From the NCBI GenBank assembly GCA_041583495.1, contig JBFHFS010000008.1, positions 36,421 to 100,420 of the forward strand: DNA of 64,000 nt. The letters are read 5' to 3'. Position 1 is the stretch's first letter; the number at the start of each line of letters is the position of its first letter. Source of the stretch: Marinilabiliaceae bacterium. GTDB lineage: Bacteria; Bacteroidota; Bacteroidia; Bacteroidales; Marinilabiliaceae. Below, one piece after another: positions 37,909 through 38,736 of the stretch. Position numbers and translations under genes: made by a program. The notes below the pieces were generated by a model, which saw only the letters and a list, made by a program, of their open reading frames with translations, was not told where the DNA came from and ran no database searches.

Positions 37909-38736
37909 TTATTGTTTCTTGACAAACGTAACCATTGTATTATTTCCAGCCCTCTGACTTAGGTTAAGAAAATAAACCCCTGCCATTAAATCATGAGTAT
38001 CAATAGATGAATCTCGTTTCAATACCCCTTTTTTAACACAGACCCCTTGTGTATTGTAAATCATAAAATCAAGGTCTCCTGTTGGCTCCGGTTGTATAAG
38101 ATACAATTGATTAACCACCGGATTGGGGTAGACTTTCACCGTGTTTAGACTTCTTTCCCGGATTTTGGTTACAGCACGGGTCGATATCCTAAAGGTGTCT
38201 GACGAAAAGAAGGTGTCGTAACTGAAATTTGCATAAACAACAATATCTGTCAGACCCGGCACTAGCGGGGTTCCACTAAAGGTTTTGCTCTGGTAATCAA
38301 ATGTTAACCAATCCGGAAGCGCTGTGCTGTCACTTTTGAGAGCCAGTATTGAATCGGGTTGCTGACTGAAAAGGGAGTCCGGAATAGTATAAGAATAAGA
38401 TTCATTTGTTGAGATAGTGGTGTCCGGGAGGTTGTAATCAAAGTAAGACCTGACCCGAAGAACCAGGTAAAGGGTCGATTCTTTTTGAATATTATAATCA
38501 CTGAGGGTTCGTCCATCCTCCAATTGCTTTCCTGCATATATTAATCGTTGCTGATCAGGGGGGATTCCTTCTTTATCCTGAATTTTGGCCTTCACATTTT
38601 CAATGGTGTCATTGGGCTCAACATCAAGGGTTATTGTTTTCCCGGTTAATGTCTTAACAAAGATTTGCATTGGATAAAGAGTCGTGGAAAAGAGCACTAA
38701 AATTAAAATGGAAAGGATCCTTTTTCTTGGATTCAT
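37909..38736 (-). CDS. Secreted eukaryotic-type ubiquitin domain / Ig-like (He_PIG-type) domain / T9SS C-terminal sorting domain fusion protein
   Basis: Signal peptide [22 protein letters not shown]. Next comes [74 protein letters not shown], then [18 protein letters not shown], then [14 protein letters not shown]...GVYFLNL...FVKKQ. The ORF-track start at 38766 is 10 codons upstream. Confidence 0.9.
37912..38145 (-). other. Type IX secretion system C-terminal sorting domain (Por_Secre_tail type) within the fusion CDS
   Basis: The last 78 or so aa read [76 protein letters not shown]. This matches the 'YPNP...l.i......i.i.d..G..v.......ID.s.L..G.Y.......k..K' pattern. Confidence 0.8.
38443..38670 (-). 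other. Ubiquitin domain (76 codons) within the fusion CDS
   Basis: 69/76 positions are identical to canonical eukaryotic ubiquitin by my manual alignment. The differences are E16D, S20N, F45Y, H68Y, L73V, G75S and G76Y. Confidence 0.9.

Follow-up and report, generated by a model that had tools for sequence, protein, structure and literature searches.

Known Secreted and Bacterial Ubiquitins

Ubiquitin is treated as a hallmark of the eukaryotic cytoplasm. The gene described here encodes a putatively exported ubiquitin of a Marinilabiliaceae bacterium (Bacteroidota) and was found in a stretch of 64,000 nucleotides (assembly GCA_041583495.1, contig JBFHFS010000008.1, positions 36,421 to 100,420), which is called the window in the following and to which all coordinates refer. 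The complete gene (37909–38736, minus strand) encodes, in this order, a signal peptide, a ubiquitin (amino acids [aa] 23–98), a He_PIG immunoglobulin (Ig)-like domain and a sorting domain of the type IX secretion system (T9SS).

The closest known case is BfUbb of Bacteroides fragilis, a secreted ubiquitin homologue like BoUbb of B. ovatus (PMC3352274, PMC5705921, PMC11467351; PDB 8hm1–8hm3, 8ypt). The window protein resembles them in that a eukaryote-type ubiquitin was horizontally acquired by a member of the Bacteroidota, in the placement of a putative Sec signal peptide such that the mature protein would start at ubiquitin M1, in the loss of the terminal diglycine and in the lack of E1, E2 or E3 genes alongside. 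The window ubiquitin and BfUbb are 67% identical, and both have Y45 instead of F45. The differences are considerable. BfUbb is a free, diffusible toxin of 76 residues, whereas the window protein adds the Ig-like and T9SS sorting domains. With respect to human ubiquitin, BfUbb has drifted apart to 63% identity and carries R in place of L8 and W in place of K11, whereas the window domain is 91% identical and retains all key residues. The C-terminal cysteine of BfUbb forms an intramolecular disulfide needed for binding of a peptidyl-prolyl isomerase (PPIase) and for killing (PMC11901371); this essential cysteine is absent from the window ubiquitin, all 76 residues of which are cysteine-free. Furthermore, BfUbb is limited to some gut Bacteroides strains, whereas the class described below spans at least six phyla.

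In comparison to the eukaryotic ubiquitin released from the UBB, UBC, RPS27A and UBA52 products, 69 of 76 residues, the fold, the lysines and the patch residues L8, I44, H68 (Y in the window) and V70 are shared. Eukaryotic ubiquitin is cytosolic or nuclear, whereas the window ubiquitin is located behind a signal peptide. It also lacks the LRGG tail, is a single unit and not head-to-tail polyubiquitin, and is fused to a bacterial, non-ribosomal extension without a deubiquitinase (DUB) release site.

Secreted effectors of cyst nematodes consist of a signal peptide, ubiquitin and a short non-ribosomal C-terminal peptide; they are delivered into the plant cytoplasm and can be processed by the host. 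Such ubiquitin-extension effectors, e.g., of Globodera rostochiensis, are cited in PMC5705921. They share with the window protein the order of signal peptide, ubiquitin and non-ribosomal extension as well as secretion to act, in the case of the window protein presumably, on another organism, but they are made by eukaryotes, end in a short peptide and not in a bacterial anchor, and have no evolutionary link to it beyond ubiquitin itself.

Type-A cargo proteins of the T9SS are exemplified by the gingipains and by SprB and ChiA of Flavobacterium, and Ig-like spacers are common in such cargo. The window protein agrees with them in its Sec signal, its functional domains and its C-terminus, where about 75 residues form a sorting domain that exceeds the TIGR04183 cut-off; it differs in that its head is a eukaryotic ubiquitin and not an enzyme or adhesin. 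No report of a ubiquitin-headed T9SS cargo could be found in the full-text literature, which leaves most subscription journals outside its coverage.

The ubiquitins of giant viruses, entomopoxviruses and baculoviruses were likewise captured outside cellular eukaryotes, keep about 90% identity and frequently carry D16. In contrast to the window ubiquitin, they have retained LRGG, have no signal peptide, can be conjugated and act inside the eukaryotic cytoplasm. Beta-grasp ubiquitin-like proteins are also encoded by the bacterial ubiquitination-like operons Bil, type II CBASS and 6E/Bub (PMC10557695, PMC11601603), but these proteins are only distantly similar to ubiquitin, cytosolic, conjugatable via a terminal glycine and encoded in operons with E1, E2 and DUB genes. 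For the window gene, neither such enzyme genes (among 30 scanned ORFs of at least about 200 aa and the annotated genes of its own locus) nor a terminal glycine were found, which sets it apart from the Bil, type II CBASS, Pup and SAMP-TtuB conjugation operons.

The literature found on secreted or bacterial ubiquitins comprised BfUbb and BoUbb and the unrelated conjugation operons. In the full-text literature, with most subscription journals outside the coverage, there was no description of surface-anchored or multi-phylum exported ubiquitins. Compared to the known secreted bacterial ubiquitins, the near-identity to ubiquitin, the anchoring via the T9SS or other surface devices and the unexpectedly wide distribution are apparently undescribed; this term is provisional, as subscription-only papers lie outside the literature covered.

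Ubiquitin Domain of the Window Gene

The gene comprises 275 codons and a stop codon at 37909–37911. As start codon, the ATG at 38736 was chosen instead of the TTG at 38766 that appears in the mechanical list of open reading frames (ORFs). The TTG was rejected, as an exact-sequence look-up in a protein collection returned no record for its product, whereas the product of the ATG start is recorded on three contigs. The ATG is further supported by two orthologues, P0002 and P0003, which begin at the equivalent methionine (MNLRKR and MNTGKK).

The region 38443–38670 encodes on the minus strand a 76-residue ubiquitin of which 69 residues are identical to human ubiquitin. A reading on the plus strand was rejected, because the translation yields nonsense with stop codons. 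An earlier note on this DNA, made from the sequence without database searches, had placed a ubiquitin at these coordinates, which proved to be right once the feature is put on the minus strand. The differences to human ubiquitin are E16D, S20N, F45Y, H68Y, L73V, G75S and G76Y, so that five substitutions fall within the first 74 residues, as had been counted in the earlier note. Likewise in agreement with it, the minus-strand translation retains all seven lysines (K6, K11, K27, K29, K33, K48 and K63), the hydrophobic patch L8, I44 and V70, and R42, R72 and R74. The globular core of residues 1–72 (aa 23–94; 38455–38670) is cysteine-free and identical to human ubiquitin in 68 of 72 positions. The tail of residues 73–76 (38443–38454) is degenerate: VRSY replaces LRGG and the diglycine is gone. 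The sequence thus reads LRVRSY instead of LRLRGG, and the reading frame runs on for 177 further codons.

The Pfam ubiquitin family PF00240 matches the protein with an E-value of 6.6e-31 (106.3 bits, cut-off 25.4), and chains of solved ubiquitin structures match it at E-values of about 1e-40, so that a chance resemblance is out of the question. An AlphaFold2 model was calculated from an alignment of three sequences; with a mean predicted local distance difference test (pLDDT) of 55 it is usable for the ubiquitin part only. There, the pLDDT ranges from 67 to 89, the order of secondary structure elements is beta-beta-alpha-beta-beta, and a Foldseek comparison with solved ubiquitins resulted in TM-scores of 0.90–0.96 and root mean square deviations of 0.6–1.5 Å over 74–76 residues. 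The superposition proposed in the earlier note therefore gives a beta-grasp fold. The domain is a ubiquitin by descent and fold that is not conjugatable as encoded, and activation by an E1 is impossible due to the absence of the diglycine from an otherwise authentic ubiquitin fold. Its preserved surface could still be recognised by ubiquitin-binding domains, DUBs or E2/E3 surfaces.

Export Signals and Domain Architecture

The ubiquitin is preceded by a Sec-type signal peptide (aa 1–22; 38671–38736, minus strand) with a charged n-region (MNPRKR), a hydrophobic core with a maximum nine-residue Kyte-Doolittle hydropathy of 3.57, and ubiquitin M1 directly after it. This leader is conserved in the orthologues of the window gene. 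The residues before M1 are L-Y-P, so that position −3 is a leucine and position −1 an atypical proline in place of an A-x-A motif, and the exact cleavage point is uncertain.

The ubiquitin is followed by a putative Ig-like domain (He_PIG, PF05345; aa 103–184; 38185–38430, minus strand) with an E-value of 8.4e-9 and 36.2 bits against a cut-off of 24. This region is predicted to be all-beta in the AlphaFold2 model, there with low confidence, and probably acts as a stalk or spacer. The window protein contains five motifs of the Bacteroidota O-glycosylation type, D[ST][AILVMT], compared to 1.56 expected by shuffling (P = 0.015). Four of them are clustered at the start of the Ig-like domain (aa 105–138; 38323–38424, minus strand) and the fifth is D21-T22-I23 of ubiquitin. 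BfUbb has been reported to be glycosylated at sites of this type.

The protein ends with a type-A T9SS sorting domain (aa 202–275; 37912–38133, minus strand) with the motifs VYPNPV and GVYFL. TIGR04183 matches over its entire length (model positions 1–72 of 72) to aa 212–284 of the 285-aa TTG-start ORF with an E-value of 1.1e-11 and 44.5 bits (cut-off 23), and the sorting domain family PF18962 reaches 39.6 bits (cut-off 27). A sorting domain at the extreme C-terminus scoring above the curated cut-off and an N-terminal Sec signal peptide, two features of type-A cargo, are both present.

Since the matches to PF00240, He_PIG and Por_Secre_tail exceed the curated cut-offs and a hydrophobic leader stands ahead of them, the protein is predicted to leave the cytoplasm. 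The signal peptide and the sorting domain had been missed in the earlier note. With the predicted export, activation by a bacterial cytosolic E1 is beside the point, and any partner of the ubiquitin must be periplasmic, located on a cell surface or extracellular.

A Multi-Phylum Class of Putatively Exported Ubiquitins

The genomes of representative species were scanned for ubiquitin, which resulted in 363 ubiquitin-encoding stretches, of which the best 80 were examined. About 50 of these are situated on long contigs or complete chromosomes and represent genuine bacterial genes. As informal criteria for a common class, a leader abutting M1, a core at least 85% identical to ubiquitin, a degenerate tail at residues 73–76 and a C-terminal sorting or anchoring module were used; all four are found in the window protein. 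Exceptions within the class are the GG kept in 7 of 52 proteins and the absence of an anchoring module from the Dyella proteins. The gene had been regarded as a singleton in the earlier note, which does not agree with this distribution over about 50 species-representative genomes from the Bacteroidota, Pseudomonadota, Verrucomicrobiota, Bacillota, Campylobacterota and Fibrobacterota as well as the Ignavibacteria/Kapabacteria group. According to the record titles, the carriers originate from freshwater and lakes, rumen, soil, sludge and marine sediment.

In each of the approximately 50 genes the leader peptide ends exactly at ubiquitin M1. Position −1 is A, S, G or C in 50 of 52 related bacterial proteins (Ala in 43), and position −3 is A, V, L, I or T. 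The modules that follow the ubiquitin differ between lineages: Betaproteobacteria and Akkermansiaceae have autotransporter beta-domains, Paracidovorax an IPTL-CTERM sorting signal, rumen Clostridia GLUG/MBG/YDG wall proteins of 1,000–1,700 residues, Arcobacter NHL repeats with an S-layer domain, and Bacteroidota T9SS sorting domains, whereas the Dyella proteins consist of leader and ubiquitin with no extension.

The residues 1–72 of 51 unique bacterial cores are on average 93% identical to human ubiquitin. The human residue is present at K11, K27, K29 and K33 in all cores, at K6 in a fraction of 0.98, at K63 in 0.94 and at K48 in 0.88; for the hydrophobic patch, the fractions are 0.98 (I44) and 0.96 (L8). 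The conservation of non-core surface residues (0.924) is close to that of core residues (0.949), whereas residues 73–76 are hypervariable across the class. Dozens of bacterial genes, several of them in sequenced cultured strains, are predicted from their sequences to export a nearly unchanged ubiquitin on surface anchors.

The cultured carriers are Limnohabitans sp. DCL3 and Arcobacter sp. 15-2, for both of which the genomes are complete, three Dyella strains, Paracidovorax valerianellae DSM 16619, Methylolobus aquaticus FWC3, Carboxylicivirga sediminis JR1 and the rumen strain Clostridiales bacterium NK3B98. With Limnohabitans, Dyella, Arcobacter, Paracidovorax, Carboxylicivirga and NK3B98, experiments are within reach.

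Some loci deserve separate mention. In a Rhodocyclaceae metagenome-assembled genome (MAG) from enhanced biological phosphorus removal (EBPR) sludge (L010), two paralogous signal peptide-ubiquitin genes (2767–3483 and 4854 onward) lie about 2 kb apart; their leaders and extensions are nearly identical, with tails of RKTR and RKTL, and point to a module that was duplicated locally. An Oscillospiraceae MAG (L035) contains two adjacent leader-borne ubiquitin-like genes at 1076 and 1798, of which one is identical to human ubiquitin in 72 of 76 residues and ends with LRLRGG, and the other in 36 of 76; the latter could be a natural example of relaxed or redirected constraint. The four Dyella loci (L020, D. 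humi; L021, Dyella sp. MAG; L041, D. jejuensis; L057, Dyella sp. OK004) encode the ubiquitin at about 10000–10300, and the proteins end at L73, with LRGY or with an intact LRLRGG. All four loci share, in syntenic position upstream (about 8800–9970), a conserved ORF of about 368 aa for which Pfam gives no match.

Selection and Age of the Fusion

A search with the non-ubiquitin part of the protein resulted in two orthologues that likewise consist of the four parts. Over the non-ubiquitin region, P0002 is 74% identical and P0003 55%; P0002 also keeps the downstream flavodoxin gene. Three more loci came from the scan of species-representative genomes: L004 in a 'Chitinophaga' MAG, L025 in C. sediminis JR1, where ubiquitin and sorting domain are joined directly, and L019 in a Flavobacteriales MAG.

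The ratio of nonsynonymous to synonymous substitution rates (dN/dS) was calculated per domain between the window gene and its closest orthologue, P0002, by the Nei-Gojobori method. For ubiquitin residues 1–72 a dN of 0.018 and a dS of 0.41 result in a dN/dS of 0.044. The values are 0.67 for the signal peptide (dN 0.169, dS 0.25), 0.125 for the tail and Ig domain (dN 0.151, dS 1.21) and 0.365 for the sorting domain (dN 0.183, dS 0.50). In this comparison, the ubiquitin evolves about 8–10 times slower than the remainder of the protein. The same tendency is visible in 13 within-lineage pairs from other phyla, for which the dN of the remaining protein is 2.7–16.6 times that of the ubiquitin. The strong purifying selection considered in the earlier note was thus confirmed (0.044 for the ubiquitin against 0.13–0.67 for the other domains), and the comparison of orthologues proposed there did not bear out a decaying pseudo-domain. 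Selection on the exported ubiquitin is as strong as on many essential proteins.

The earlier note had offered a very recent acquisition as the other possible cause of the few substitutions; this is contradicted by three lines of evidence. First, in comparison to each of the 49 other ubiquitin genes analyzed, whether bacterial or eukaryotic, the synonymous sites are saturated (proportion of synonymous differences, pS, at least 0.81). Second, the architecture is kept in diverged relatives: compared to L004, the ubiquitin is 89% identical, the Ig region 42% and the sorting domain 34%, which indicates that the fusion is old and that the ubiquitin was held nearly constant. Third, the G + C content at third codon positions (GC3) of the ubiquitin ranges from 0.11 to 0.94 in 44 bacterial loci and tracks the G + C content of the host genome (r = 0.90). 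Due to the low dN/dS, the saturated synonymous sites, the divergent fusion relatives and the GC3 match, the ubiquitin is neither decaying nor freshly acquired. For the architecture and the selection acting on it, very high confidence is warranted.

Origin and Eukaryotic Contamination

As a control, viral contigs encoding ubiquitin were collected, and the best 80 of at least 600 (L086–L165), mostly giant-virus MAGs, were analyzed. LRGG is kept in 52 of 53 of their ubiquitins, and no leader peptide was found among these best 80. There is no evidence for a phage as vector of the exported form, as the viral hits are mostly from giant viruses, leaderless and equipped with LRGG. D16 occurs in 34 of 53 viral and 32 of 51 bacterial ubiquitins, and S22, present in 20 of 53 viral sequences, is common in the bacterial exported set as well. 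The frequency of D16 in both sets speaks for a protist- or virus-like source and against a bacterial innovation, so that there are hints of protists or their giant viruses as putative donors. The ubiquitin would then have been gained horizontally from a eukaryote or giant virus and would have been resident long enough to adopt the bacterial base composition.

Contigs of 0.3–1.3 kb in 'bacterial' or 'archaeal' reference genomes (Flavobacterium, Arthrobacter, Halorubrum, Shewanella and others) encode head-to-tail polyubiquitin or ubiquitin-ribosomal fusions (L031, L037, L040, L047, L050, L051–L053, L056, L058, L061, L063–L065, L067–L069, L073, L074, L077 and L081), with plant- or fungal-type residues in the set. 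These short contigs are almost certainly eukaryotic contamination of the assemblies. A further locus on a 181 kb contig of an Alphaproteobacteria MAG (L055:9835–10751) contains truncated ubiquitin units in different frames with mid-domain starts and LRLRGG ends. This pattern resembles an intron-interrupted or frameshifted polyubiquitin, for which a wrongly binned eukaryotic contig or an insert in decay could be responsible.

Possible Function and Alternative Explanations

In the proposed mechanism, the Sec signal peptide would take the protein across the inner membrane and the type-A sorting domain would pass it on to the T9SS, which, by analogy with other T9SS cargo, would cut off the sorting domain and either anchor the protein to the outer-membrane surface or free it. 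The remaining product would be an Ig-like stalk with the ubiquitin at its free, distal N-terminus. Purifying selection holds the globular surface (residues 1–72), constraint is released exactly at the conjugation tail (residues 73–76), and the ubiquitin would work as a displayed look-alike and not as a covalent modifier. As partners, the ubiquitin-binding proteins of eukaryotes that meet these bacteria, e.g., protist grazers or hosts, would be the best guess. To our knowledge, only eukaryotic ubiquitin-binding proteins constrain the entire ubiquitin surface. Because selection preserves this whole eukaryotic surface and not merely the fold, eukaryotic ubiquitin readers would be the most economical partners. 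The habitats suggest that the carriers come from environments in which grazing protists or eukaryotic hosts play a prominent part.

For the window protein, surface exposure and the partner's identity are what we infer. That it serves as a displayed, non-conjugatable ubiquitin mimic recognised non-covalently is considered the leading explanation, at about even odds; that the target is eukaryotic is slightly less likely than this. Because the same module is built into each phylum's own surface-anchoring device, external display appears as the common purpose. Somewhat more tentatively still, it is suggested that at least six phyla have each wired a nearly unaltered ubiquitin to the tip of a surface display protein, as a general and hitherto unrecognised device of inter-kingdom mimicry of which the window gene would be the T9SS version. 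If true, free-living and gut bacteria would engage the ubiquitin readers of grazers or hosts and might alter recognition, phagosome fate or attachment. With a eukaryotic partner, environmental and gut bacteria could have a new, testable means of manipulating predators or hosts, and the class would be a natural experiment revealing the parts of the ubiquitin surface that still matter in the absence of conjugation.

Several points weigh against this explanation. Its main weakness is topological: known ubiquitin receptors reside in the cytosol, whereas the surface of a bacterium faces the extracellular space or the interior of a phagosome. BfUbb, the only secreted bacterial ubiquitin that has been studied experimentally, acts on bacteria and not on eukaryotes. 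Expression, cleavage of the signal peptide, dependence on the T9SS and surface exposure are predictions from sequence; proline at position −1 is disfavoured by signal peptidase I; and use of the T9SS is deduced from the sorting domain, because no T9SS machinery gene (PorV/PorU/SprA/GldKLMN) was seen within the 64 kb window. Outside the ubiquitin, the AlphaFold2 model is of poor quality, and no geometry of the Ig and sorting domains can be derived from it. A clustering of 835 neighbouring ORFs from 40 loci revealed no conserved partner gene; only generic ABC ATPases, LysR regulators and lineage-specific synteny recur across loci. Finally, the patch is not frozen in the T9SS clade: L8 and R42 are replaced by V and I, respectively, in P0003 and by A and Q in L025, and position 68 is Y, Q or H. 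Within this clade the constraint is slightly looser than in eukaryotes.

An alternative is an interbacterial weapon, in which the ubiquitin head is released or acts on contact, enters the target by TonB-dependent uptake and inactivates a periplasmic protein, e.g., a PPIase. BfUbb and BoUbb, the only secreted bacterial ubiquitins characterised so far, act in this way, and the window protein shares with BfUbb a putative signal peptide abutting M1, the lost diglycine, a Bacteroidota host, Y45 and 67% identity. Such a weapon is nevertheless unlikely here. The cysteine and disulfide on which BfUbb depends are missing, and BfUbb is free and drifted, whereas the members of the class stay at about 93% identity and are tethered to anchors. 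Furthermore, no conserved immunity-like or transporter gene lies beside the class loci, and the TonB-dependent receptor-like gene upstream of the window gene was not seen at the orthologue locus L084, a short contig of 4.8 kb. If the partner were bacterial after all, the weapon type known from BfUbb would be greatly widened.

Ubiquitin is a small, very stable and fast-folding protein. A purely structural role is therefore conceivable, in which it forms a stable, protease-resistant N-terminal cap or a folding nucleus and its surface is not read by any partner. Its position at the extreme N-terminus of otherwise unrelated surface proteins would fit this role, as would the lack of a conserved partner gene nearby. 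A cap, however, needs only the hydrophobic core, whereas the exposed residues are conserved almost like the core (0.924 vs. 0.949), the lysines and the I44 patch included. In addition, the dN/dS of 0.044 is far below that of the structural Ig and sorting domains of the same protein, and a fast-folding domain behind a Sec signal would be expected to hinder export. A cap is for these reasons rather improbable.

Still less credence is given to a processed pro-form, from which a protease cutting past the ubiquitin core (after R74 in the suggestion of the earlier note) would free a soluble ubiquitin-like protein, with the Ig and sorting domains as mere export vehicle. The Dyella proteins (L020, L021, L041 and L057), which consist of signal peptide and ubiquitin only, point in this direction, as do L025, where the ubiquitin sits directly on a sorting domain that the T9SS normally removes, and the 7 of 52 proteins that keep LRGG or LKGG ahead of the extension. 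On the other side, there is no conserved cleavage motif past residue 72, where the tail and the following residues are hypervariable, no DUB-like or dedicated protease gene was found nearby, and the extension is a true anchor in the autotransporter and large Firmicute members. A pro-form would also alter the form of delivery and not the logic of mimicry.

An artefact or dying relic, i.e., eukaryotic contamination, a chimeric assembly or a functionless, decaying recent transfer, is suggested by the many short contigs of contaminating polyubiquitin in 'bacterial' assemblies (e.g., L037, L047, L050 and L051) but is effectively refuted by one uninterrupted ORF uniting a bacterial signal peptide, ubiquitin and Bacteroidota-specific domains, by the identical gene in three separate assemblies (contig of at least 77 kb, longest recorded contig 128 kb), by the equal G + C content of the ubiquitin part and the remainder (0.40), by two orthologues, one of which keeps the downstream flavodoxin-like neighbour, by strong purifying selection, and by class members in complete genomes of cultured bacteria.

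Whether the displayed ubiquitin meets a eukaryotic or a bacterial partner, reagents against ubiquitin may cross-react with bacteria, and ubiquitin reads in metagenome bins are not always contamination.

Genomic Context of the Window Gene

The surroundings of the gene were analyzed by a Pfam scan of 30 ORFs of at least about 200 aa in the window and by the precomputed annotation of the window locus (L001). The window represents ordinary Bacteroidota chromosome; it contains gyrB, dapF and uvrB as well as genes for an rpoD-like sigma factor, HtrA, arginyl-tRNA synthetase (ArgRS), arginine decarboxylase and GH2/GH127 glycosidases. Neither E1, E2, E3 or DUB genes nor integrase, transposase or other mobile-element genes were detected in this data set, in which ORFs of about 100–150 aa are covered within L001 only; to this extent, the absence of ubiquitination genes noted earlier holds. 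In addition, a tRNA scan and an Rfam search of the window revealed no tRNA and no match, respectively.

Three contigs that were assembled independently of each other encode the identical protein. On each of them the gene adjoins the same flavodoxin-like gene downstream, and on two of the three the same aminotransferase gene upstream. Upstream of the gene lies an AT-rich intergenic region of 480 bp (38737–39216, minus strand), which is presumed to bear the promoter. A promoter scan around the gene resulted in one weak sigma-70-like match, no more than in shuffled sequence, and the same applies to the terminator scan.

The region 34600–39400, which contains the ubiquitin gene together with the flavodoxin-like, ArsR-type regulator and C_GCAxxG neighbours, has a G + C content of 0.35–0.45, compared to 0.50–0.55 beyond 39.4 kb. 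The ubiquitin gene itself has a G + C content of 0.40, which is the same in the ubiquitin part and the remainder, and a GC3 of 0.39, compared to a mean of 0.516 ± 0.055 for the long ORFs of the window. A private recent transfer of the gene, deduced from its composition, was rejected, as the neighbours at 34.6–39.4 kb are, like the gene, more AT-rich than the window average.

Five sizeable ORFs of the window have no Pfam match at the applied E-value limits of 1e-5 or 1e-6, namely 11093–12853 (plus strand, 586 aa), 58088–59524 (plus, 478 aa), 33115–34095 (minus, 326 aa), 28478–29314 (minus, 278 aa) and 54234–55058 (minus, 274 aa). Two genes upstream of the ubiquitin gene and on the same strand, a TonB-dependent receptor-like gene with CarboxypepD_reg and Plug domains is located at 40600–43050 (minus strand); BfUbb enters its target cells via a TonB-dependent SusCD transporter.

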